IMG/VR virus record: IMGVR_UViG_3300006111_000001 | Reading direction: 5' to 3' (one strand) | DNA length: 59,891 nucleotides | Origin: a virus | Part shown: positions 2,340-35,406 of the stretch, piece by piece | Position numbering within the stretch: position 1 is the first letter of the stretch | How the letters are laid out: every line of letters starts with the position of its first letter | Notes under the pieces: model-generated | What the model was told of the DNA's origin: nothing | The model's input: only the letters and a program-made list of their open reading frames with translations | Databases searched by the model: none | Program-made: the position numbers and the translations under genes

Positions 2340-4747
2340 TTTTTGGCCTCCAATTCTTCAAGCCGGGCAGTGAGTTCACGCACCGCTTGCCACAACACCG
2401 GAATTAATTGATCCGGCCTCAAATGATGTGTGCCATCTTCGTCTTGCACATATCCGGCAAAATCTTTGCCCGTGGCGGCAAACGCATCGCGCACTTCGGT
2501 AGCCAAGAAACCCCAATGGGTCCGCTTGCCAGGACGATCCACAAATTTTTTAACTTTGACCTTTTTTGCGATCATGCGCGGGACAGGGTGCATTTTTTGC
2601 TGCAATTGTCCCGGCTCGCCTTTTTTGCCCGGCACAAATTCCATGACCGGATTGCCATCGGCATCAACCACCGGCATCAAGTCATAAACGCCAGTTTCCG
2701 TTTTAACGATCCGGTCAAACGCAACCGGCTTGCCGTCCACAATTTGAATATCGTGAACAACGCCCTCAGACACTTCGCTTTCGTGAACAAGTTGATCTTC
2801 TTCAACTTCAATTTCATCCCGTCCACCGGCAATCCACTTAAACGTCTTTGGTTCAAGGGATTTAATGATGGGCAACACATCCGAAACCGGCTCAATATCG
2901 GTTTTTAAACTTGGATCAGATGTTTGAATGGTGCCATTGACAGCCCACACCGCAGACCACCGGCCCGCCGCCGTGCCGCATGTGTAAGCATTGTCAGATA
3001 ACCCAGCCAAATGACCGCCAAACACAGCCGCATAACCACCGCCCCCGGTAAATGTGGCGCGTCCATTTAACGTCAAACCAGCCAGAACGCCCGTGCCGTC
3101 AATGTTAATATAAGCACTGGACGTTCCGCCGCTCAAAATGCCCACTTGACCAGACACGCATTGAATATAAGCCGTCCCCGGATTCATTGTGGAATCTGGA
3201 AACGCTTTACCCGCCCCATATGATCCGTTTAAATAAATGCGAGCGGAATCGGCCAAAACAATCGATGCACTGGTGCCAGGATTATATCGGTGCGCTTGGG
3301 TCAAGTCGATTGCCGCGCGATACCCGGACAGACCTTTAAACGAAATGCCCGCGTCCACCGGAAATTTTACAGTAGACCCGCCAATAACATTGGTTCCGCT
3401 GGAATCCATCAGCCAGCCAATCCACGTATTGCCGTAACCAACAGTCGTCGTGGTTCCGCTGTAGAAAGTGGATTGCGACGTGCTGGACCCGGCTCGCAGC
3501 ATGCTATGAAACCAACCGATACATGCCACGTCATAAGATGTGGTGCCAGAAAGATTGGTGTAATCAAATTCAAACGGGTTTAGATACGTGCCATCTTTGT
3601 AAGACGTGGCCCCGCCGTTCATGATTGAAACGGCAGGACACGTTGCAAACCCATAAGTCGCATCGCCGGACGTAATTGTGGGCTTGGCCAATGCCGAAAT
3701 GCCAACATTGACATTCAACGCGGCGCAATCGCCCTTATTGTCCTGATAGACATTTAATTGCATGCCAACGGCGCTTGTCCGTTGCGTCAACGGATTGCCA
3801 AAAACGGTATAATCCGTGCTGCTATTCCAGCCCGAATAGTTCCGCATAAACAAAGCAAAGGGAAAGGTTTGCGGCATGTAATAAATACCGGTTGAATACC
3901 CCCCCAGCGTGTTTAGGCCGGTGACATAATGTTCAATGGAAAAATTCTGGCGCGACCAATCCCCGTTAAAATATTTGGTATTATCGGCCAAAGCAAAATT
4001 AGTCAGGTCCGGTTGCATTGTGACCATTGAATAAAATTTGCCGCGCTTGGATTGCGAGCCATCCAACGCCAAAGACGCAACTTGCCCTTGACCATAGAAA
4101 TTTGCCGTTAATTTCGGCCAAGTCTGATATGTCGCACCACCCGTCGAGCTTCCGCCATCCGATGACGCGGTTATGGTTGTGGTATAAAGCCCAACGGGAA
4201 CATAAATGCTGCCATTTGTATTGGCGCCAATCGCCGTTGTGACCGCAACCGTATTGTCATACCCATAAGTCGAAATACCGCCATAATACGCAAGATTGCG
4301 CGGCAAATCCTGATCTTGAATGTTCCGAAATGTCGGAGACGCGGTGACACCCGTGGACGCATTCCCCGGCCCCGCCAAAAATGTTTGGCTGGACACCGAA
4401 ATAAACGACGCGCTTAAAGTGCCAAACGTGGTGACGGGCGATCCGGTAATACCAAATAAAGCCGTGGGCAAAAATAGGCCAACCGAATTGACCCCAGCCC
4501 CAGATACCGCGACCCAGCCCGCGCTTGTCGTGGTTCCCGTGGTGACACATGCATAATAAGCCCGATTGGTCACGTCATAGCAGAAATCGGGCGGTACACC
4601 CCCGGCAACACCTTGCTGCCCGGCAACATGCCCGTTTGGATTCCCGGCATAGACAAAGACATTAGGCGATTGAATATTTGAACTCATAAACCACCTATTG
4701 AACAAACCAATTGCCCGCGCCATCGCATTGCAGCGTTGCACTGGCAA
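2336..4747 (-). CDS. Tail fibre/tailspike with C-terminal intramolecular-chaperone (peptidase S74-like) domain
   Basis: 803 aa. C-terminal ~195 aa carry the hallmark pattern of the endosialidase/T5 L-shaped-fibre chaperone domain: ...TSDPSLKTDIEPV... and terminal ...HLRPDQLIPVLWQAVRELTARLEELE. N-terminal body is G/S/T-rich. Confidence 0.6.
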   Translation of the reverse strand: MPVQRCNAMARAIGLFNRWFMSSNIQSPNVFVYAGNPNGHVAGQQGVAGGVPPDFCYDVTNRAYYACVTTGTTTSAGWVAVSGAGVNSVGLFLPTALFGITGSPVTTFGTLSASFISVSSQTFLAGPGNASTGVTASPTFRNIQDQDLPRNLAYYGGISTYGYDNTVAVTTAIGANTNGSIYVPVGLYTTTITASSDGGSSTGGATYQTWPKLTANFYGQGQVASLALDGSQSKRGKFYSMVTMQPDLTNFALADNTKYFNGDWSRQNFSIEHYVTGLNTLGGYSTGIYYMPQTFPFALFMRNYSGWNSSTDYTVFGNPLTQRTSAVGMQLNVYQDNKGDCAALNVNVGISALAKPTITSGDATYGFATCPAVSIMNGGATSYKDGTYLNPFEFDYTNLSGTTSYDVACIGWFHSMLRAGSSTSQSTFYSGTTTTVGYGNTWIGWLMDSSGTNVIGGSTVKFPVDAGISFKGLSGYRAAIDLTQAHRYNPGTSASIVLADSARIYLNGSYGAGKAFPDSTMNPGTAYIQCVSGQVGILSGGTSSAYINIDGTGVLAGLTLNGRATFTGGGGYAAVFGGHLAGLSDNAYTCGTAAGRWSAVWAVNGTIQTSDPSLKTDIEPVSDVLPIIKSLEPKTFKWIAGGRDEIEVEEDQLVHESEVSEGVVHDIQIVDGKPVAFDRIVKTETGVYDLMPVVDADGNPVMEFVPGKKGEPGQLQQKMHPVPRMIAKKVKVKKFVDRPGKRTHWGFLATEVRDAFAATGKDFAGYVQDEDGTHHLRPDQLIPVLWQAVRELTARLEELEAKK

Positions 4748-5492
4748 AATTGGATCGAAGGTTAAAAGCGGACGTGGACCCTAAAATGGTGTCCCCGGAA
4801 TAAGGCGTCACAGCGATATTGTAGGTTTGAGCCGTGCCAATTTCGTCAGTAACGGTAATTTTGTTCCAGATATAAGTGGACGTGCATTGGTAAAGATTTT
4901 CGGTCTTGTTTGAAGCCGTGGCACTTTTCCAAGCAATCGTGCTTAGAGACGGAATTGCGGTATCCGTTGACCCAGATGTGATTTGGCGCCCCACATTGGC
5001 CGTTGACGTTGTGGTGGACACGGATAGTGAATTAATCTGGCTTTGAAGCTGTTGAGTGATATAGGTTAGGTAATCTAACCCGCCCTCAATCGCCTTAAAT
5101 GTCGGCCCCTGGTTGGAAATCGACACCGTTTGAACCAAAGGAACCACACGCGAAATCGTGATGTAATATCCCGCCGATAATGGCGATCCGGTTAAGGGAT
5201 AAGTGACCGTCCCGCCAATGCTTCCAACCCCTGTCAGGGTGTATTGGCTTGGCGTTAATGTGGTCAAAGTGTTGGGAGTGACATTGGTATTTAATACTGT
5301 GATGACCGCATCCCCAGCCGACACCATGGGGAAATTATAGGTGAACGAGGTTGTAACCCCATTTCCTTGCGCCGTGGTCGAACTTGACGTGGTTGAAACG
5401 GTCGAAAATACCGGGTCCGCAATCAGTCCCAGTACAACAAAGACCAGAATTTTAAACACGGCGGACAAGCGCATTTGCACCTTTTCCGCCAA
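4695..5492 (-). CDS. S/T-rich structural protein (fibre module)
   Basis: 265 aa; hydrophobic N-terminal segment then Ser/Thr-rich sequence; start may be the TTG at 5492 or the internal ATG (MRLSAVFK). Confidence 0.4.
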   Translation of the reverse strand: MAEKVQMRLSAVFKILVFVVLGLIADPVFSTVSTTSSSTTAQGNGVTTSFTYNFPMVSAGDAVITVLNTNVTPNTLTTLTPSQYTLTGVGSIGGTVTYPLTGSPLSAGYYITISRVVPLVQTVSISNQGPTFKAIEGGLDYLTYITQQLQSQINSLSVSTTTSTANVGRQITSGSTDTAIPSLSTIAWKSATASNKTENLYQCTSTYIWNKITVTDEIGTAQTYNIAVTPYSGDTILGSTSAFNLRSNFASATLQCDGAGNWFVQ

Positions 5493-5566
5493 GGGATGTT
5501 ATGGCCGACGCATCTTTGCGCTCTTGCCTAAGACTTCTTTAACCCGACGCAGCGGTTAAGGTCTAG

Positions 5567-8500
5567 CTATTCGCCATTCCTAGCCCGCATTTTATCTTCC
5601 ATTGCACCTTTGATAATGTCGTTTGGCCCCCCGACACTTTGAGCCGCAATCATATTTGCCGCAGCCGTCCGGCTGGATGAAATCGTTTTGGTGATGGTTT
5701 CCGCCCGGATATTCTTGGGGATTTGCTGCCAGCCCGGATTTTGAACCAAAGCGTTTAATCGCATTTTGGCTAACCGGCCCGCCGTCTGGGCATATTGGTC
5801 ATATTGCTCATCGGTCAAATCCTGCCCTCGGATTGACCGGCGCAATTTCCCAACCCCCAGACCCAAGGCGTTCATTTCCTTAACCACCGAATCATTGGCA
5901 TAACGATCCGCCGTGCCACTTTGCGGGATTGGTTCGCCAAACATATCTCGTTTGGGCAATAGGCCAATTGAGACAAACGGCACCTTGGCCTTGGCGGCAT
6001 CCAATAAGGTCCGCGCTTCGCGTTGATACGGATCGACCGCGTGAGCCACTTGACTCATGCCAACGCTAAACGGCATCCAATTGATGACCATCCCTCGAAT
6101 ATAGCTTTCGCCATATTCTTCCGGATGAAACACCGCATTCAGCATGTCAGACAATCCTTTCATAAAGGTTTCATCCAACACCGCTTTATTAAACCCTTCA
6201 AACGCCGCTTTGGCTAAAACCGTGCCATCTTCACCATCCCAGCCATGCGCGGCTTCGGTCATATTGGCCCCAAACCGCATAAGCATGGCAAACGGCCCCA
6301 GACGGTCATAGGCCACCGACACATCGCCAATGGTAATGTGATTGGGTTTATTGGCCATCAGCCACACACGGCGCTCATTGGGATCAGCAGGGCCATCCCC
6401 GGTCATCAACCCATTTAAGGTCATCATGACGGATGTACCGATTAAAGCCGTGCCGGTGGCGATTTTGCCAAATTGCATGTCTTGAGCAGACCCGCCGTTT
6501 TGCCCGGACAAATTGCCGCGCACGTCCCTATCCAATAAGCCAATGGGCGAGCGTTCAATAAATGCTTCGCGGGTTATTTGGGTGCCAATTTTCATAAACG
6601 GCACAATGATTTTTGCCGCTAGGTTTGAATTGGCCGCAGCTGTTAATTTCCCTGAAAACGAATTGTAATCCGCAGGCGCCATGAATAATTCTTTCATGGC
6701 ATCCGCACTTGCAGCAATCATCATTTCCGGTGTCGGCTTTTGAGTTAATTCCGCAACCCGTCCTTTGAACGCATCCCCGGTCAAACCATCATTCATGGCT
6801 TCCCGATAGGCCAAAGATTGAATGTTTTGCTCATATCGCAGGGATTTAAAAAACGAGTGAATGGCCGCAACCGATTTGGACGGCACATTGATAATTTCGC
6901 CAACCTTGCCCGGAATGGCCCGCGTGTTCATATCGGTAAAATGACCAGATACCTTTTCCCCAGGCAATGCAGGGGAAATGCCGGTTTTAAACGCTTGCGT
7001 TGCCGCCATTAAGCCATCGGATGATCCCTTCATCATGCCGTATAATTGCGCGCCCGCCTCACCTAAATAAACTCGATTTTTGACCTCATAGCCCAAAGCC
7101 TCGCGCGCCGCGCCGACCGCAGACGCCACCGGAATTTCGATCAAAGGACGCGCCAAGGCATTTAACGCATTGCCCACCGAATACCGGGCATGGGTTATCG
7201 GCCCCGAAATCAAAGCATTAACGTAATATTCCAATATGGCGTTTTTGATCGACCCACGGGCGGAATCATTAACAAACTTGGCCACTTGTCCCGGCGTTTG
7301 CAGGTTCATCCCAAATTGCGCTTCTTGCCTTAGTTGTTCCGGTGTCCGGCCAATGGTGCTTTGGAAGAATTGCGCCAACGCTTCGGCATCCGCCGACCCT
7401 TCCAGCTTACGGAATGCTCCCAACGCCCGGCCAGCTTCCGCCGTAATCCCCGCCACTTGCTCTTGAATCATCAAGTGACGTTGCCGCGCTTTGGCATAGG
7501 CCATCACATCGGCATCCGATCCATTGGCCGCTTTTGCCATCAAATCACGCACTTCCGTCGCAGATTGAATTAACAGCTTTCGAGCCGCAAGGATTTGTTC
7601 GGCGTTGAACGCTTCCCCGATCCGGCGCCAATTGAGTTTTGCCGCATTCATGCCCAAAGCATCGGCCAGGTCCAATTGTTCCCCGGCAGAAATCACGCCC
7701 CGCCGTGCGGCCATGAAATCTTCATTATCCGCCGCCGTTTGACGCAAAACTTCTTTTACATCTTCCGGTGTATTGAGATTATCTAACCGGATATTCCCGG
7801 CCTTATCTACAAGGTCTGATTCATCGGTTGCGAACCGCTCATTGGGTCCGGCTGGGTATTCTGTCTTGCTCCCATTAGACCTAGTGCTGCGTCCGCGTGA
7901 TCCGCTGCTTTCTTGAACATCGACCGCACCTCCTCCGGCAGGTCCTGATTGCCCGCCATCATCCGCGCTCTTGATCGGCCCTCTAGCAGATTCTTCCGCC
8001 CGGTATTCATTTTCCAAATCCTCCTCGGTGCGCGGATTGTCGTAATCCGGCACGTTATCACCTTCCCAAGCATCGCCTTTGGCTTCTAAATGAGACTTGG
8101 CCCATTCTTCCGCGTGGCGCAATTCGCGCTCAAAATCCGCTTCCTGAGAATGAATTTCCTTTAATTGTTCTTCGGTTGACATGCGGCTGGCAACTTCATT
8201 CCAGAACTCGCTATGCGACATGCCGTCCGCTTTAATGCCCAATTCCCCGGCAATTCGATCCACTTCGGAATTGTGGTTTAAAGCATCCTGATAGGCTTTA
8301 ACCTTGTCATAATCAAAATCGGAGAATTGATGGTCCCCGTTTACGTCACGGGTTAGCTTTTCCAAAAATTGATTAATCGTGGGACGTTCACCGCCCAATT
8401 CAGGGAAAAACCCGGCTTCTTCCGCCGCTTGCGCCACCCGGTCAATATCTTTGCCCGTTTTGCGCAGCACCCCGCCATTACGCTTGCCACCAAACAATGC

Positions 8501-28776: not shown

Positions 28777-28938
28777 CTAACCCCCGCTCAATTTGGCAAA
28801 AATAACGCGCCAATGATTGGGCATCGGATCAGAACCAACCACCGCCCATCCGGCAGCACCATGCGCGTTTAATCGTTGAGCCAATTCTTCCGGTGTCATC
28901 CGTGGGAAATCGACCACGTTATACTCGTATGTGTTCAT
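28777..28938 (-). CDS. Small protein translationally coupled to portal
   Basis: 53 aa (MNTYEYNVVDFPRMTPEELAQRLNAHGAAGWAVVGSDPMPNHWRVIFAKLSGG); its ATG overlaps the portal TGA (ATGA). Not in ORF track. Confidence 0.3.
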   Translation of the reverse strand: MNTYEYNVVDFPRMTPEELAQRLNAHGAAGWAVVGSDPMPNHWRVIFAKLSGG

Positions 28939-30800
28939 TGACTGCCCCCGTTCCCAATGCCGTGCAGCATGGCTTGAACCGCGTTTTGCCCCCCGCCCAC
29001 GTCAATATCCGATAGTGTTTTGGCCCCTTGAACCGCCGCCAGGCTGGCTTGCCCTTGTTGCTGCGCTTGCATCTGCGCCGCGCGTTGCTGACGCAATGCC
29101 GCAACCTTCTCAGGCGAATTAAGGATATGTTTGGGAATAAATAAATCATCCGCGTATTCGCGCATCCAGGCATCCCGATCCCAAATATCAGCGATGGACG
29201 GATCACCCGCTTGCATGTTCCCAGCCGTACCAGCAAACCGCTCAAGCGCGGACGTGGACGAGGCTTTTTGCGCCAAGGCCAACATGCCCACAAACTCAAT
29301 TCCGATATTCACGCCCTGTAACGATTTGGGCAGCGGCGGCAGCAAACCCTTGCGTTGCATAATCGCAAACACCCGCTTAACCGCAGGTGCTAGGGCTTCA
29401 TTCTGTAACCGCTCAATCACCGGACCCAGCACTTGCAGCTTTTCTTGTTGCCGTTGTGCAACTTCATAAGCGGTCATGTTCTTGTTCGATGCCGTTTCCA
29501 GCATCATGAACAGGTCATTAAAGAACCCCTCTTTGATCCGCTGTTGAATTGCGGCCAAGTCTTGCATCATGTGATCAATGTTGGGCTGAACCGTATAAAT
29601 CGGTCGCATGCCCTTGCCATTGTCCAATTGATTCACATAAGTCACTTTGCCGGGCAGGATCGAGGAAGGCTCATTCTTCAAATCCATCGAAGCAAGCATT
29701 GGCGGACGCACCATTTTTTCAATGGCTTCCGCTTTGCGCATTGTCTCGACTTGCAACTGCATAATGTCCGGGAGCACGTCCATGCCCACCGAACGCCCAT
29801 AAGCATCATTGGACGTTGTGGCCCAGCGTGGAGCGTAATGCGGTTGGTCTAAGAAGCCCCGCATGGATAGGGGATAAGCCCCACCGGCACCCCAGACCCA
29901 ATAGACCTCGCGCCAGACAAAATCCCCATCCACGACGCCGACATTGCCGGAGCCATTAGGCGTCTTAATGGGAAAATTTGGCTCAATCGCATGCGCCACG
30001 GTCCGTTCGACTTCAAGCGAACCGCCCTTTTCCATCCACAGCTTTTGAATGTCAGACGGGCAATTCTCAATCCCAAACATTTCCACAATCGCGGAAACGG
30101 TCATAACAAATTGGCGATAAAGAGATTCAACCCGATTGGCCGATGACGAAGCCAAGAAATACTCACCGCAGCATGGCGTATAAGCACGGATCACATCTTC
30201 ATCATCCTCGTAAAGAATGACCGGACCCGTCCCAAAGGTCACCAAATCTTCAAACATTTGGGCGCCAGCGTCATAGAAGTTCGACCGGCCCATGACCTCG
30301 TAAACGCGGTTCTCGCATTCTTCAAACCAATCAACTGCGTCATCATCCATATCTGAACGATCAAGCAGCCCAGGCTTTAATTTGAACCACGGGCGAGATG
30401 GAGACATTAAACCGCTCATCATACCAGCCGCACACTTACGCATGGCCAGCGTGCCCGTAGGATCGACAATCGCGTCATTAATAGGCGAGCCGCGCACCAT
30501 GCTATTGGGTGTCGGCATTGCATTGTTAATAAAAATGCCCCGGCGCGGCAGGATATAGGTTTCAAGGATCGACCAATGCGACGCCCAGCTTTGCCGCCAG
30601 GATCGAAGCATGGCCAGCCGTGTCTCTAAATGCCCGCGCAGGATCAGCCAGTCATTGCCTTGCGTTACTTCGCGCACCGAAGCTTTGGCCGGTGTCATGG
30701 CTAATGCTTTTGGCCCGGCGCTTTCATACGCGACCTCGCGCGCCTTACGGCCCGGCTTGGAGCGTGTATCCGGACGGTCTGTAACCGCAGCGTCACTCAT
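28935..30800 (-). CDS. Portal protein
   Basis: 621 aa; position immediately after terminase; size and composition consistent with podovirus portal/connector proteins. Confidence 0.55.
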   Translation of the reverse strand: MSDAAVTDRPDTRSKPGRKAREVAYESAGPKALAMTPAKASVREVTQGNDWLILRGHLETRLAMLRSWRQSWASHWSILETYILPRRGIFINNAMPTPNSMVRGSPINDAIVDPTGTLAMRKCAAGMMSGLMSPSRPWFKLKPGLLDRSDMDDDAVDWFEECENRVYEVMGRSNFYDAGAQMFEDLVTFGTGPVILYEDDEDVIRAYTPCCGEYFLASSSANRVESLYRQFVMTVSAIVEMFGIENCPSDIQKLWMEKGGSLEVERTVAHAIEPNFPIKTPNGSGNVGVVDGDFVWREVYWVWGAGGAYPLSMRGFLDQPHYAPRWATTSNDAYGRSVGMDVLPDIMQLQVETMRKAEAIEKMVRPPMLASMDLKNEPSSILPGKVTYVNQLDNGKGMRPIYTVQPNIDHMMQDLAAIQQRIKEGFFNDLFMMLETASNKNMTAYEVAQRQQEKLQVLGPVIERLQNEALAPAVKRVFAIMQRKGLLPPLPKSLQGVNIGIEFVGMLALAQKASSTSALERFAGTAGNMQAGDPSIADIWDRDAWMREYADDLFIPKHILNSPEKVAALRQQRAAQMQAQQQGQASLAAVQGAKTLSDIDVGGGQNAVQAMLHGIGNGGSQ

Positions 30801-31157
30801 CCGAGCAGCGATGCCTTGGCCGTTGTCGCCGGTGTCGTTAAGCCACCAGCCCCGCCATCATTCTTGACAGTCCCGCTAAATCCCGCACCCGCCGCAGCAG
30901 CAGCTTTGCCCTTTTGTGAATTGCCAGCCTGATCGACATTTGCATTGGCCATAATTGGCGGCGCCGCAGCCGGTGGCACAGCAGGAATAACAGGAGCTTG
31001 AGGTGTCGGAGGTGACGAAAATAACGCGCCCAAAGGTCAATCCTCACGGTTAAGTGAGGCAAAATCTAAACCCGACGCATGGTCATTTGTGTTCTATGGG
31101 TGCGAATTGCACCCTATATGCCCCACGATTGGGGGCGGCAAAGCGGATATTTGGGTG

Positions 31158-31952
31158 CTATCGCTTGCCCCATGCAGAGGCGAGAGGATTGTAATCAACT
31201 TCATGTTTGTTTGGTCGCAACCCAGCGCGCACGCGGTAATCGTCAACCGGACGAAATGCGGCAATGTCAATCCCGCTCATAATCCCATACCGCATGCAGT
31301 CCATTAAATGGTCATTTTCTTTGACCACTTGCCCCTTATCGTCCCGGCGATAAATGCGATACTCGCTTAACGTATTTTGCAGCGTTTTAAATATTTTAAG
31401 CCGCCCCGTCGATAATCGCATCCAGGTCCGATATATGCCCGCTTCCCTCGCATTATTGGCCGTAATCAGCGTTAATCCTAATTGTTGATATTCCCATAAC
31501 AATTGCTCGCCATCCTTTTGTGCTCGACCGCGTGACGCCGGATCAATAACCCCCGGTATCCACTCTCCGCGCGCCTTAATGGCTTGAGCGTGAGTCGATG
31601 GTTCAGCCTGCCCGCGATAATGTTCAGAATAAGCGTAAACCACGTCCGATTCGGTATCATGCGCAAACCACAATCCCGCCGTTCTATTCCATCCCACGTC
31701 CATGGCGTAAAAATGTTTCCAATGAGCGGGTATTTCGAACGGATCACAGGTCACGTCATCTTCCGGCACCGGATAAATGGCGCCCGATCCAAGGGCCGGA
31801 ATGCCTTTGGTGCGCGCGTCCCGTTCATGCGGAGCATAAGACTTAATCATTTCCGCTTGCGCTTCCGCTGATATGTGCGGAACGTCTGCCCAGGAAACGA
31901 ATGTAATGTATTTCGCCATTTCCGTTAGCCGTTTTGCAAAGCAACGGCCCAA
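31158..31952 (-). CDS. terL: Terminase large subunit, C-terminal nuclease portion
   Basis: 264 aa; RNase-H-like terminase nuclease pattern (…HFYAMDVGWNRTAG…, …ENDHLMDCMRYG…). Probable true start is MAKYITF at ~31919, 5 nt after the HNH stop. Confidence 0.7.
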   Translation of the reverse strand: MGRCFAKRLTEMAKYITFVSWADVPHISAEAQAEMIKSYAPHERDARTKGIPALGSGAIYPVPEDDVTCDPFEIPAHWKHFYAMDVGWNRTAGLWFAHDTESDVVYAYSEHYRGQAEPSTHAQAIKARGEWIPGVIDPASRGRAQKDGEQLLWEYQQLGLTLITANNAREAGIYRTWMRLSTGRLKIFKTLQNTLSEYRIYRRDDKGQVVKENDHLMDCMRYGIMSGIDIAAFRPVDDYRVRAGLRPNKHEVDYNPLASAWGKR

Positions 31953-32449
31953 CGCTTGCCGCGAACAATGCGCCCAATTTGCGTTTGTTTTACCCCAAAC
32001 ATTTCACCTAATTGTCGTTGATAAAATTTGCCGCTTTTCCAAAGGCTTAATATCTTACGCACATCATCGACAGACAAGACGGCGTTATGATGCCGCTCAC
32101 CCATCAAACTTGTCCCATGCTTTCGCTTGTCCAAATGATTTGACGACCGAGTATCCCATCTTAGATTTGAATAATGGTTATTCGATGGATCGCCGTCGAT
32201 ATGGCAAATTTCCGCCCCGTCAAACGGCTTTAACCCTATAAAAGCATACGCAACCAATTGATGAGCTTTTTTGTGGATCGACTTACCATCCTTACGCAAA
32301 ATCACCATTGGATAGCCGTCAGATCGAATCCACATCTTCAATATTTTGCCAATGCGCGCGCCGGGAGCAGCCGTAACGCGACGAACAGCGCCCCATTCAC
32401 TAACTTCATAATCCTCAAAACCAGGCACAATCCGCCATTCAGCAATCAT
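31925..32449 (-). CDS. HNH homing endonuclease inserted within terL
   Basis: 174 aa; N-terminal NUMOD4-like (YEVSEWGAVRR) and HNH core (HQLVAYAFIG…ICHIDGDPSNNHYSNLRWDTRSSNH). Start overlaps the TerL-ATPase stop (ATGA). Confidence 0.8.
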   Translation of the reverse strand: MIAEWRIVPGFEDYEVSEWGAVRRVTAAPGARIGKILKMWIRSDGYPMVILRKDGKSIHKKAHQLVAYAFIGLKPFDGAEICHIDGDPSNNHYSNLRWDTRSSNHLDKRKHGTSLMGERHHNAVLSVDDVRKILSLWKSGKFYQRQLGEMFGVKQTQIGRIVRGKRWAVALQNG

Positions 32450-33219
32450 GACTTAACCTCCCCTTCCAAACGCGCACCACCCGGCATGAATGAAAGAACC
32501 ACAGCCGAAAGGCCGCGCAGCGGCGTGAACCCGCATATCACCAACCCGGACGGTTGACCGGGCACGGTCGAAAGCGTTCGAGTTAAGCCTTCCGAGTAAA
32601 TGTCCAATGGCGGTTCTTCATCAAATTGCATAATGTCGATTTTGGCCGCTTGGAACGATTCACGCCCCTGATCATAGGATTTAAACAGCATCCGCGACAC
32701 GCCGCCCGATAAATGCTTGACCGTCACGCTATCCACAGCATCCGGCACGCCCGGCCTTGGTGTCGCCTTGATGATATTGTCAGCCGGTATTAAACCCGTG
32801 CCATGGTCCCCGGTTGGCCCCAAATACGTCACTTGCAAGGATTCGCGGACGGCCTTGGTATCTTCGCCCGCCGCCCACATGGTCACAGGGCGATCAAACT
32901 TGCGCCCAACCCACCAATGGGGATACCAACCAGTTAAATGAAGGGCGCACTCATACGAACACCCAAACGTCTTTCCCGATCGGTTGCCGCCGACCAAAGC
33001 CCGCTCTTGATACGTGGCCCCAGCCGCAAAATGGGCCAAATGCTTAGGGTATAATTCGCGCCGCAATGGCCCGGTATCAGGATAAGCCCGGTAAAGCAGC
33101 GTCTTGCGGTAAATGTCATGCTCTAATTCGATAATGGCCTTAAGGCGCGCATAATCATCCACCGGCAGCGCTGCCAATTGTTCTGGCGTCAGCGCCGCAA
33201 CTTCATCGAACAAAGCCAC
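32446..33219 (-). CDS. terL: Terminase large subunit, N-terminal ATPase portion
   Basis: 257 aa; Walker A (GGNRSGKT), Walker B-like (IDIMQFDEEPP); ends where the HNH ORF begins. Confidence 0.75.
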   Translation of the reverse strand: MALFDEVAALTPEQLAALPVDDYARLKAIIELEHDIYRKTLLYRAYPDTGPLRRELYPKHLAHFAAGATYQERALVGGNRSGKTFGCSYECALHLTGWYPHWWVGRKFDRPVTMWAAGEDTKAVRESLQVTYLGPTGDHGTGLIPADNIIKATPRPGVPDAVDSVTVKHLSGGVSRMLFKSYDQGRESFQAAKIDIMQFDEEPPLDIYSEGLTRTLSTVPGQPSGLVICGFTPLRGLSAVVLSFMPGGARLEGEVKS

Positions 33220-33421
33220 ATTCGCCGCCTAACCGATGGTACAATGCTTTTACAGCCAGAAACGCCATAACCGGGCAATAGCCCGTTTCCCAATTCTGAA
33301 CCGTGCGCGCGGTCACGTCTAATACCAAAGCCAATTCAGCACGCGATAGGCCCAATAATTCCCGATATTCAGCCAATCGAGCGGCAAAATTGACCTGTTT
33401 GGAAATATTTTCAGTAACCAC
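33203..33421 (-). CDS. Small HTH (XRE-like) protein
   Basis: 72 aa; …LGLSRAELALVLDVTARTVQNWETG… helix-turn-helix pattern. Confidence 0.45.
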   Translation of the reverse strand: MVTENISKQVNFAARLAEYRELLGLSRAELALVLDVTARTVQNWETGYCPVMAFLAVKALYHRLGGECGFVR

Positions 33422-33456
33422 CGCGCAAACTCCTCATTTTTAAGAAATAATTTCCA

Positions 33457-33903
33457 TCAATGAACTTTTGACGGGGCAATCTCGCGCGCTTTCTTCATAA
33501 TCATCATAGCATCGGCAACGCGCTCGTTTGGCGCCATTTCCTTAACGGTATGCTCAATCGACCCTTTGTGCTCATGCTCGTGCTTTTGAACGAACAATTT
33601 GAGATACTCGCCCAGCTTTGCCCAAGCGGTCACACGCGCCCCGTGTGACGAACCTTCACCTGTACGCCGAGCCTCGGTCAAAAGCCCGTCCAGCACCAAA
33701 TCTGCCGTGATTTCAGCCGTTTTTATTTGCTTTGACACCAATTGAGCCACAGCCGCCTTCACCTGAGCATTCCCTAGCAAGCGCGGACCATTAACCTCTG
33801 CGCTTTTAGCCGAGTACCCAGCCCGGATAGCCGCTTGTGTCGCGTTTAAATCCTTAACGTATTCAAGAACAAAGCGTTGTTGCTTGGGGTTCAGGTCGCT
33901 CAT
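33457..33903 (-). CDS. terS: Terminase small subunit (Terminase_2/P27 family)
   Basis: 148 aa; N-terminal signature LNPKQQRFVLEYVKDLNATQAAIRAGYSAKSAEVNGPRLLGNAQVKAAV. Confidence 0.75.
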   Translation of the reverse strand: MSDLNPKQQRFVLEYVKDLNATQAAIRAGYSAKSAEVNGPRLLGNAQVKAAVAQLVSKQIKTAEITADLVLDGLLTEARRTGEGSSHGARVTAWAKLGEYLKLFVQKHEHEHKGSIEHTVKEMAPNERVADAMMIMKKAREIAPSKVH

Positions 33904-34027
33904 GCGTTTATCTTGCCAAACAATGACTTAGCCAAACACTCGACAAAGATTGCAATGCTGATCCTATTAAAAAAATCCAACATGACAGGCGGCATGAAAA
34001 CTTGGCCTTGGTGTTCAAAAGCGCGAT

Positions 34028-34845: not shown

Positions 34846-35406
34846 TTACCCAAACCTCCGCCCGACAAATTCCGCATGCCGCTTAAATGACCGCTCCCGC
34901 TTCTTATCCAAAGGAAAATAAGCAATGGCAGCGTGATCCGCGCAATATGGCTTATTCGATAACTTTGCGTCTTGGCAGTAACGCCAAACATTATCTTGCG
35001 GCCCCGGATTGCCATAGACCCAGCAGCACCCGCACGGTTCTTTAACACCCTCACCGGCCACAACATCACCCCACGCCGGATCAATCGGCAGTGATTTAGA
35101 TACCAAGCGCGGCTTCATTGGTTCAGTGACCAGCCTGGGCATCCGCAGCCCTTTAAACCCCATCACGCGCTTTGCATGTGCCTTGGCCTTTGGCTTTTGT
35201 TCGACCGGCTCCTGATCCGCCCCCTTGGCATTTGACAGCTTAAGCCCCAACCGCCGCAATTGCCCCATAACTGCATTGCGCGTGATATGCCATCCAGCCG
35301 CCTCCGAAGCAATTAAAGCAATCTGGCTGGACGATGCCCCAGGAGTTTTTTCCCAAGCCTCTCGAATGTATTTGCGCGAGTCCGAAATCTGAATGGCGTT
35401 TCTCAT
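34846..35406 (-). CDS. GcrA-like cell-cycle regulator homolog
   Basis: 186 aa; N-terminal …SSSQIALIASEAAGWHITRNAVMGQLRRLGLKL matches the GcrA N-terminal DNA-binding pattern; C-terminal …CGCCWVYGNPGPQDNVWRYCQDAKLSNKPYCADHAAIAY matches the GcrA C-terminal Cys/His pattern. Confidence 0.7.
   Translation of the reverse strand: MRNAIQISDSRKYIREAWEKTPGASSSQIALIASEAAGWHITRNAVMGQLRRLGLKLSNAKGADQEPVEQKPKAKAHAKRVMGFKGLRMPRLVTEPMKPRLVSKSLPIDPAWGDVVAGEGVKEPCGCCWVYGNPGPQDNVWRYCQDAKLSNKPYCADHAAIAYFPLDKKRERSFKRHAEFVGRRFG

Follow-up and report, generated by a model that had tools for sequence, protein, structure and literature searches.

In the stretch of viral DNA studied here (IMG/VR record IMGVR_UViG_3300006111_000001; 59,891 nucleotides, hereafter the window), the gene for the large terminase (TerL) is encountered as two open reading frames with an HNH endonuclease gene between them, which raises the question of whether the endonuclease divided the gene and how the packaging motor is produced from such a locus. 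All three ORFs are encoded on the minus strand, each in a different reading frame, and are flanked upstream by the small terminase gene (Terminase_2; 33457..33903, (-), as listed in the gene table for L007, a contig of the identical phage) and downstream by the gene for a T7-type portal protein (Head-tail_con; 28935..30800, (-), public gene calls). The N-terminal piece of TerL (N-piece; 32446..33219, 257 aa) starts with GTG at 33219 and ends with TGA at 32448-32446, this stop codon overlapping the HNH start codon in the sequence ATGA (32446..32449). The HNH gene, of the free-standing homing-endonuclease type (31925..32449, 174 aa), extends from the ATG at 32449 to the TAA at 31927-31925 and is followed, after the 5-nt spacer CGGAA (31920..31924), by the ATG at 31919 opening the C-terminal piece (C-piece, MAKYITF...; 31158..31919, 253 aa, stop codon at 31160-31158). 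Within the 531 nt separating both TerL pieces, only these 5 nt do not belong to an ORF. The same three genes are present in the public gene calls for 14 independent contigs of the window phage, and the arrangement was confirmed to be real, far beyond chance. Since identical proteins were recovered on the 14 contigs, originating from several samples, the HNH-bearing phage represents a viable population; complete viral contigs of approximately 60 kb were seen repeatedly in many samples and in IMG/VR. The sequence-only reading of this DNA had described a TerL encoded by two cistrons around a free-standing HNH gene, with overlapping codons at the first junction and a start codon shortly 3' of the HNH stop, and the ORF coordinates, frames, and domain matches agree with it.

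Both pieces carry the features of a large terminase. The N-piece was matched by Pfam Terminase_6N (E=8.8e-15) and features a Walker A motif (GGNRSGKT, residues 77-84), a Walker B motif (IMQFDEE, 196-202), and motif III (FTP, 231-233), with G82, K83, D200, E201, E202, T232, and P233 being invariant among 120 homologs. It represents a RecA-like ATPase core with a disordered C-terminal tail (...FMPGGARLEGEVKS*), was modeled by AF2 with a pLDDT of 94.5, and found its best Foldseek matches in the TerL ATPase domains of D6E, P74-26, and T4 gp17. The C-piece was assigned to Terminase_6C (E=2.6e-6, residues 79-214) and phrog_5653 (E=3.5e-25), possesses four residues invariant among 118 homologs (D74, D203, H204, and D207), and is similar in structure to the P22 TerL nuclease 4DKW (Foldseek E=8e-17, TMt 0.85). 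All catalytic motifs are kept in both pieces, and both AF2 folds are of high confidence. The suggestion that the two ORFs are halves of one TerL was borne out by the alignment of N-piece plus C-piece to intact TerLs, which runs end to end with zero residues missing or added. The locus therefore combines the ATPase motifs and the RNase H-like nuclease of a TerL, distributed over two cistrons rather than a single polypeptide. In the PHROGs database, the N-piece family is labeled as 'unknown function', and many C-pieces are termed 'hypothetical protein' by JGI.

The pieces had been described as the 'ATPase' and the 'nuclease', but the chain breaks elsewhere. In an intact homolog, Terminase_6N covers residues 61-293, and the position equivalent to the break lies near residue 240. 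The N-piece spans only positions 2-146 of the 215 profile positions, C-piece residues 7-52 weakly match positions 166-211 (E=0.09), and several C-piece homologs of about 250 aa have precomputed PF03237 matches. Moreover, the P22 nuclease crystal construct 4DKW can be aligned only from C-piece residue ~43 onward. The C-piece starts with a hydrophobic strand-like segment (KYITFVSW) and two helices; in the AF2 model, residues 1-9 are without secondary structure and the helices comprise residues 18-27 and 30-38. The break is thus located after motif III, inside the ATPase domain and not at the ATPase/nuclease boundary, and the C-piece consists of the last ~40-50 residues of the ATPase domain plus the nuclease. 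As judged from the Terminase_6N tail match, the AF2 model, and the 4DKW alignment, the first ~42 residues (31794..31919, (-)) represent the end of the ATPase domain, i.e., the lid region, and the remainder (31158..31793, (-)) the RNase H-like nuclease domain, as indicated by Terminase_6C, Foldseek, and the invariant residues. Among 118 C-pieces, 93 begin exactly nine residues ahead of a conserved Trp, with an M-[STA]-[KR] start. The idea that the N-piece tail ...EGEVKS had been imported with the HNH cassette was dropped because ...EGEV... is also present in a fused relative (L013).

Comparison with related genomes lacking the HNH gene had been proposed as a check, and it revealed the same split with overlapping stop and start codons instead of an intact TerL. 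Among the nearest 120 N-piece clusters, all 120 are stand-alone halves (199-287 aa), as are 119 of the nearest 120 C-piece clusters (231-338 aa). Five distinct relatives with identities of 61-84% have cistrons overlapping by 4 or 8 nt and no HNH gene, namely L104 (84% over 68 matched residues), L106 (76%), L004 (67%), L005/6/14 (65%), and the P0040 contig (61-68%). In the nearest relatives without the endonuclease, TerL is divided at the same codon position, and, among close relatives, the HNH gene was detected in the window phage only (absent from L104, L106, L004, L005, and the P0040 contig). Because these relatives are split identically without an HNH gene, the HNH gene is not, as had been supposed, the cause of the split. 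Two fused TerLs also reside within the clade (L013, 63%; L015, 56%). A metagenome scan for close relatives yielded seven loci, the useful ones being L104 and L099, the latter representing the same phage; a near-identical genome of the window phage lacking the HNH gene was not found.

The same breakpoint recurs across the wider TerL family, where it was identified in 34 of 87 viral loci (IMG/VR and reference), 30 of 74 bacterial-genome loci, and 49 of 150 clusters at 50% identity, and hundreds of independent split-piece clusters possess precisely conserved termini. The junction acts like an intergenic position open to diverse cargo, which across the family comprises HNH genes of three types, a remnant of an HNH gene, HipA/HTH, Cpn10, and unknown ORFs. 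Isolates with this break include Acidovorax sp. A1169, Root219, and CF316, as well as Roseomonas acroporae NAR14, Acetobacter musti LMG 30640, and Vibrio galatheae S2757. The examples from cultured strains are prophages, those in the phage collection are metagenomic only, and the collection searched yielded no cultured phage with precisely this break. Several candidates were discarded: EBPR podovirus 1, Rhizobium phage RHph_N2, Chlorobiaceae phage CV-1-33, StenR_269, and MJing1 are annotated with a single intact TerL CDS; Vibrio phages and Xfas53 have a single terminase annotation with N and C matches in one frame; and the TerL of DES1 is split at a different site. In intact proteins, the break site corresponds to a loop of variable length (the two TerL matches are 6-45 nt apart, or -3 nt in two loci). 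A search of the full-text literature did not retrieve a description of this TerL fission, and several papers that had seemed relevant dealt with other genes.

The HNH ORF was identified by Pfam HNH_3 (E=4.9e-12) and NUMOD4 (E=1e-5) and by phrog_59 (E=6e-42); its C-terminal tail has no family match and appears HTH-like by eye. With a family nuclease plus accessory DNA-binding modules, an ORF of its own, and sporadic presence among close relatives, it has the hallmarks of a homing-endonuclease gene. Its GC and GC3 contents (46.4% and 44.8%) are lower than those of the N-piece (55.8% and 59.9%) and the C-piece (51.1% and 51.0%), giving it a foreign-looking composition, and the lower GC suggests a later arrival. 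A strong Shine-Dalgarno (SD) sequence for the HNH ORF, GGGGAGG (32457..32463, (-)), is located within the last N-piece codons, 5 nt from the ATG, with an anti-SD duplex of -11.9 kcal/mol; the C-piece ATG has no usable counterpart (-3.5 kcal/mol at a spacing of 0). Searches for a promoter or terminator private to the HNH gene returned pattern counts at or below the shuffle expectation. Homologs of this HNH were detected at no other TerL junction, save a weak cross-match to the different endonuclease of locus L049, and a viral-contig scan for HNH relatives returned the same phage and one unrelated weak match only.

Taken together, the window phage, a podophage of ~60 kb, quite probably builds its TerL from two translationally coupled chains, the intercistronic junction being a place where free-standing homing endonucleases can settle. 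The gene is split at a constant position behind ATPase motif III; this fission is inherited clade-wide and is widespread in the TerL family, and the two cistrons, arranged head to tail, normally have overlapping stop and start codons, so that coupled translation in roughly 1:1 amounts is probable. The N-terminal strand and lid helices of the C-piece probably complement the RecA-like core of the N-piece, resulting in a complete ATPase joined to the nuclease; association of the chains is putative, and strand complementation is suggested by comparison with homologous TerL structures of the single-chain type. The junction of the window phage has been secondarily occupied by the NUMOD4-HNH_3 gene, which is present here and absent in relatives. 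Translation of the HNH gene would proceed from the strong SD at the 3' end of the N-piece gene, and the SD-less C-piece would probably be reinitiated 5 nt past the HNH stop, the spacer being the proposed site of termination-reinitiation. The HNH enzyme presumably cleaves the junction alleles of co-infecting relatives that lack an HNH gene and is then propagated through recombinational repair, a process known as intronless homing.

How the split arose is a separate matter. According to one explanation, which concerns this origin and is compatible with the coupled two-chain TerL, homing endonucleases created the fission: an ancestral invader would have entered an intact TerL with a stop and a start codon, the split would have spread by co-conversion and persisted after decay of the endonuclease, and the HNH gene of the window would be the latest re-invader. 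We consider this a real possibility, falling somewhat short of probable. In its favor, the breakpoint is scattered over the tree, with at least 12 state changes and 23 split tips among 75, as counted on a single NJ tree without support values. Furthermore, three unrelated HNH types are located precisely within the junction (phrog_59 in the window, phrog_99 HNH_3+AP2 in L049, and a PF01844 HNH in L151), and L003 features a 46-aa remnant of the phrog_99 endonuclease between the pieces, with an ATGA overlap on each side. Endonuclease-made fission has already been proposed for other phage genes (PMC5418858, and Friedrich 2007 cited there). On the other hand, most split loci contain no detectable endonuclease trace, and tblastn searches with both endonucleases against all loci returned the L003 remnant only. 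A matched pair of an intact and an endonuclease-bearing split locus, which would give a clean before and after of the insertion, was not found, L049 and L051 being too diverged. In addition, simple mutation could also split TerL, because intact proteins have a loop of variable length at this position. More tentatively, and as something possible rather than probable, the loop after motif III may itself be a homing site whose repeated invasion by different homing endonucleases turns a single-chain motor into a two-chain one, the fission outliving the endonuclease as a stable, translationally coupled gene pair and the chains reassembling by strand complementation within the ATPase fold.

It is very unlikely that the HNH gene of the window itself broke an intact TerL, as in the nrdA/mobE case of phage Aeh1. 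Its placement exactly between the pieces and the fused TerLs of the clade would fit such an event, but the relatives closer than these (84%, 76%, 67%, and 65%) are split without it, a homolog occurs at no other junction, and the lower GC points to a later arrival. Equally doubtful is a role of the HNH protein as a functional partner of terminase, comparable to the HK97 gp74-type HNH required for cos cleavage, which the sequence-only reading had considered. The gene adjoins the terminase genes, and HNH proteins are known to take part in packaging (Kala 2014, cited in PMC5746245); however, a packaging role of this kind is improbable because none of the relatives examined has this HNH, its architecture (NUMOD4 and HNH_3 with a C-terminal tail) is that of homing endonucleases, and the TerL C-piece keeps a complete nuclease of its own. 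There is hardly more to be said for a decaying TerL pseudogene in a defective element: essential genes in split form are often pseudogenes, and many split examples reside in bacterial genomes as prophages, but the kept catalytic motifs, the high-confidence folds, the hundreds of clusters with conserved termini, and the recurring complete contigs argue against decay.

It is barely conceivable that the phage nevertheless produces one TerL chain, whether through splicing of an intron, protein (trans-)splicing, a ribosomal frameshift, or bypassing, since the 531-nt gap far exceeds the ~50 nt bypassed in T4 gene 60, the frame relation of the pieces in relatives varies (-23 to +3 nt, all three frames) with a start codon always present, and an Rfam scan of 30500-34000 at E<=10 found no group I or II intron, its only matches being three chance snoRNA/IRES hits. 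The lack of room for a group I intron and of an in-frame intein had been recognized correctly: the gap is HNH coding but for its 5 nt, and an intein or split intein is excluded by the three frames together with the residue-for-residue alignment to TerL, which leaves no Hint-like extra residues. Some homologs in the TerL family do carry inteins, at other sites, and terminases with introns, inteins, and split-intein 'fractured genes' are known (PMC2677866, PMC11878797). In such fractured genes, the intein halves measure 88-105 aa (N-intein) and 33-54 aa (C-intein) (Dassa et al., PMC2677866).

Several known systems resemble the locus in part. The T4 topoisomerase genes 39/60 with mobA represent a similar case of genes in pieces. 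Another parallel is NrdA of Aeromonas phage Aeh1, a gene in pieces divided by mobE, a free-standing endonuclease (Friedrich et al. 2007, as cited in PMC8351571 and PMC5418858). Here as there, an essential phage enzyme is encoded by two ORFs around a free-standing endonuclease gene, lacking an intron or intein, and function is presumably restored via non-covalent assembly, as suggested in our case by conservation and by recovery of the phage in many samples. As in genes in pieces, the two ORFs together make up the intact enzyme, whereas the nearest endonuclease-less relatives do not have an uninterrupted gene: the TerL fission is independent of the endonuclease, is common to more than 100 relatives without it, and is found repeatedly within a large family. 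A further difference is the target, the packaging motor TerL, with the break within the ATPase fold. With free-standing phage endonucleases of intronless homing, such as the T4 seg/mob genes and I-HmuI-like HNH_3 enzymes (PMC2988022, PMC10448857), the gene shares its position as an HNH_3/NUMOD4 ORF between conserved genes, compact overlaps, sporadic presence, and atypical composition; unlike the T4 seg/mob type, its translation seems to intervene in the coupling that links the halves of one enzyme, and homing is putative here. Fractured genes, in which split inteins flank a free-standing endonuclease, are known from one gp17-like terminase locus among others (Dassa et al. 2009, PMC2677866), and the order of host N-part, endonuclease ORF, and host C-part in phage-derived DNA is the same. 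However, split-intein halves are lacking in the window, each piece adjoins the endonuclease directly and corresponds to intact TerL residue for residue, and the endonuclease belongs to the HNH family instead of being GIY-YIG or Vsr-like. Compared to the single-chain TerLs of P22, Sf6, T4, P74-26, and D6E (PDB 4DKW, 5OE8, 4ZNK, 3CPE), the Terminase_6N/6C domains, motifs, and folds are the same, but the chain is divided into two polypeptides by a break that follows motif III, precedes the last core strand and the lid, and is situated upstream of the ATPase-nuclease linker. In contrast to the HK97 gp74-type packaging HNH, the window HNH is not a conserved terminase partner.

Models now in use for the packaging motor of tailed phages and herpesviruses treat TerL as one chain whose ATPase core, lid, and nuclease move relative to one another via covalent linkers, the ATPase-nuclease linker featuring among them. 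The phages described here represent a large natural group in which the motor comprises two polypeptides, the RecA-like core being separated from the lid, and thus offer a ready-made test of which covalent connections matter, as well as a source of separable subunits for biochemistry. TerL is also the standard phage marker gene, and the half-length TerLs are currently mis-annotated and may be discarded as fragments in virome phylogenies. Furthermore, the locus is an unusually rich case of homing endonucleases and other cargo exploiting, and possibly creating, gene fissions, with empty, occupied, and decayed junctions co-occurring side by side. If repeated endonuclease-driven fission is true, selfish elements would have recurrently split an essential molecular motor, now in approximately one third of the TerL family.

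The large terminase (TerL) of this podophage was encoded by two cistrons with an HNH endonuclease gene between them, all three genes being located on the minus strand and in three different frames. The upstream cistron (N-piece) extended from a GTG at position 33219 to a TGA at 32448-32446 and encoded 257 aa, in which GGNRSGKT forms Walker A, IMQFDEE Walker B, and FTP motif III; it matched Pfam Terminase_6N (E = 8.8e-15), but only over profile positions 2-146 of 215. Its stop codon shared an ATGA with the start of the HNH ORF (32449-31925; 174 aa, NUMOD4 and HNH_3 domains; E = 6e-42 against phrog_59 'HNH endonuclease'), which was separated by 5 nt (CGGAA) from the downstream cistron (C-piece; ATG at 31919, stop at 31160-31158; 253 aa, MAKYITF...) with a Terminase_6C match at residues 79-214. 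This layout, described in the sequence-only reading, was confirmed by the ORF coordinates and by the gene calls on 14 publicly available, independent contigs of this phage, in which the three genes encoded identical proteins, as they likewise did in loci L096, L097, and L099. A 72-aa HTH_3/HTH_31 ORF (33203-33421, minus strand), an unusual regulator amid a packaging operon, was found between the small terminase gene (33457-33903) and the N-piece, whose start it overlapped by 17 nt. The region 34846-35406 (minus strand) and the genes upstream of it comprised a GcrA-like cell-cycle regulator, a DnaA C-terminal-domain protein, an N6/N4 DNA methyltransferase, and DUF1376 (gene table of L007, a contig of the same phage), a gene set suggesting an alphaproteobacterial host.

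The TerL break fell within the ATPase domain. The two cistrons had been read as separate ATPase and nuclease genes; they did prove to be two TerL parts with the nuclease fold in the C-piece, whereas the boundary was not the one between the domains. Alignment to intact TerLs placed the break at approximately residue 240 of the EBPR podovirus 1 protein, in which Terminase_6N covers residues 61-293. Residues 7-52 of the C-piece weakly matched Terminase_6N positions 166-211 (E = 0.09), and precomputed PF03237 matches were present in several C-piece homologs of ~250 aa. The P22 nuclease crystal domain (4DKW) aligned only from C-piece residue ~43, and the C-piece aligned over 225-242 columns with full-length D6E TerL versus 188 with the nuclease alone. 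Modeled with AF2 (pLDDT 94.5), the N-piece showed a RecA-like core matching the ATPase domains of D6E, P74-26, and T4, with a low-confidence tail after the motif III strand (226-231). The C-piece model (pLDDT 87.9) began with nine unstructured hydrophobic residues and helices 18-27 and 30-38, followed by the nuclease fold; judged by likeness to single-chain TerL structures, its N-terminus would supply the last core strand and the lid of the ATPase, and the two chains would presumably reassemble non-covalently.

Splicing elements were absent from the locus. Within 30500-34000, the Rfam scan returned no intron at E ≤ 10, everything between the pieces except 5 nt was HNH coding sequence, and both pieces abutted without lost or extra residues when aligned to EBPR podovirus 1 gp39 and Rhizobium phage RHph_N2 TerL, bearing out the earlier view that neither a group I intron nor an intein is involved. 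The split-intein halves of 'fractured genes' measure 88-105 aa and 33-54 aa (PMC2677866), for which abutting pieces leave no space. The HNH ATG was preceded by a strong SD (GGGGAGG, -11.9 kcal/mol, 5-nt spacing) inside the last N-piece codons, and the C-piece ATG had no usable one (-3.5 kcal/mol, zero spacing). Weak SDs and overlapping stop and start codons, also found in many relatives, fit termination-reinitiation coupling, by which the TerL cistrons may be translated; in the window phage, such coupling would have to run through the HNH ORF. Promoter and terminator signals at this locus did not exceed shuffle expectation. Ribosomal bypassing, which spans ~50 nt in T4 gene 60, can be dismissed, the gap of 531 nt being far too long.

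The HNH gene had been taken as the cause of the split, which was not borne out by comparison with related genomes lacking it, since the nearest relatives carried the same two cistrons. These overlapped by 8 nt in L104 (N-piece tail 84% identical) and L106 (76%), and by an ATGA in L004 (67%), L005/L006/L014 (65%), and the P0040 contig; in other HNH-free loci, they were separated by a 200-nt spacer (L109) or a 147-aa ORF of unknown function (L107/L108). The 67-kb genome of L107 also carried an IS605 OrfB/TnpB (Cas12f-like TNB) gene (4983-5825, minus strand) ~320 nt downstream of the C-piece. The best 120 N-piece homolog clusters (54-76% identity) all measured 199-287 aa, and 119 of the best 120 C-piece clusters 231-338 aa. 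Because 93 out of 118 C-pieces started exactly nine residues ahead of a conserved Trp (M-[STA]-[KR]), a conserved initiation site rather than random truncation is indicated. In the junction alignment, the HNH cassette (ATGATT...TAACGGAA, ~531 nt) sat precisely where the N-piece tail meets the C-piece ATG. Its GC content (46.4%; GC3 44.8%) was below that of the N-piece (55.8/59.9) and C-piece (51.1/51.0), only 6.7% of same-size genome windows being lower, and no homolog was detected at any other TerL junction in the viral contig scan or by tblastn against all compared loci. The junction between the cistrons thus existed before the HNH, which occupies it secondarily and may have homed into it.

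Other junctions carried different cargo. That of L049 held an endonuclease with HNH_3 and AP2 domains (phrog_99, E = 1e-50), and L003 (MW202785) retained 46 aa from the C-terminus of an endonuclease of the phrog_99 family (E = 5e-5), this remnant having an ATGA overlap on each side; in the prophage L151 of Roseomonas acroporae, the occupant was a PF01844-type HNH. Acidovorax prophages (L074, 4709-7475; L144, L147, and L156) harbored, on the opposite strand, a HipA-like kinase (HipA_C, E = 2.6e-42) with an XRE-type HTH gene, or the HTH alone; in L146, a sister prophage of the same strain, the ATGA junction was empty. A Cpn10/GroES-like gene (4404-5102, E = 1e-19) occupied the prophage-like locus L153 of a Candidatus Angelobacter MAG, a broken DUF1643 was found in L149, and several ORFs of unknown function completed the cargo. 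Given this variety, the junction acts as an ordinary intergenic site, one where homing endonucleases have landed repeatedly.

The same breakpoint recurred across the family. Of 87 viral and reference loci that could be classified, 34 were split there and 53 intact; for 74 bacterial-genome loci, the values were 30 and 44, with split isolates including Acidovorax sp. A1169 (two prophages), Root219, and CF316, Roseomonas acroporae NAR14, Acetobacter musti LMG 30640, and Vibrio galatheae S2757. The best 150 clusters of a 50%-identity library comprised 76 intact proteins, 49 N-pieces terminating at the breakpoint, and 25 entries that were fragmentary or of another kind. On a single NJ tree of concatenated pieces without support values, 23 split tips out of 75 required no fewer than 12 state changes (mean 19.8 and minimum 14 after shuffling of labels), so the split state is heritable, yet was gained or lost repeatedly. 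Every frame relation occurred among the junctions, where the cistrons overlapped by 23, 14, 13, 8, 7, 4, or 1 nt, lay 0-37 nt apart, or flanked an insert of 65 nt to 2.8 kb, while the start codon was always at the equivalent position, which argues for independent initiation of the C-piece rather than recoding. Two PHROGs families, phrog_31467 and phrog_5653, consist of half-proteins only, the N-piece family being labeled 'unknown function' and many C-pieces 'hypothetical protein' (JGI names); the fission is thus so common that it has given rise, unrecognized, to families of its own in public resources. Many TerL homologs of 520-890 aa (P0121, P0123, P0124, P0126, P0132, P0180, P0256, and others) matched the N-piece in two to three separated stretches, interrupted at query positions ~80-88 (Walker A) and ~180-199 by inserts of 120-330 aa that are most likely inteins. 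Some of these are N-pieces that likewise terminate at the fission site, and a single TerL can therefore combine fission with one or two likely inteins. In the cultured Xanthomonas phage DES1 (OK624832.1; L094, 1381-3714), TerL was annotated as two CDSs (118 and 398 aa) with a 165-aa hypothetical ORF between them, the break being at a different, earlier site.

T4 genes 39/60 with mobA represent endonuclease-associated genes in pieces. Aeh1 nrdA/mobE is a further case, as summarized in papers citing it (Friedrich 2007, cited in PMC8351571 and PMC5418858). The window locus works like both, and its HNH resembles free-standing seg/mob endonucleases; however, endonuclease-less relatives of the Aeh1 type carry an intact gene, unlike those found here. 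Endonucleases may have had a causal role in the original fission. The hallmarks of intron-borne endonucleases, inteins, and fractured genes were missing from the locus, as were those of HK97-type packaging HNHs from its HNH, which speaks against the suggestion that it may act with terminase. Full-text literature yielded no description of such a two-cistron TerL, although many subscription journals were outside this scope and a prior mention is possible. The sequence-only reading thus identified a real, unusual arrangement while misattributing the cause and position of the break. More interesting than an HNH insertion is what the locus exemplifies: a widespread large terminase naturally made of two chains, with the break lying within the ATPase domain at a junction that is a hot spot for homing endonucleases.
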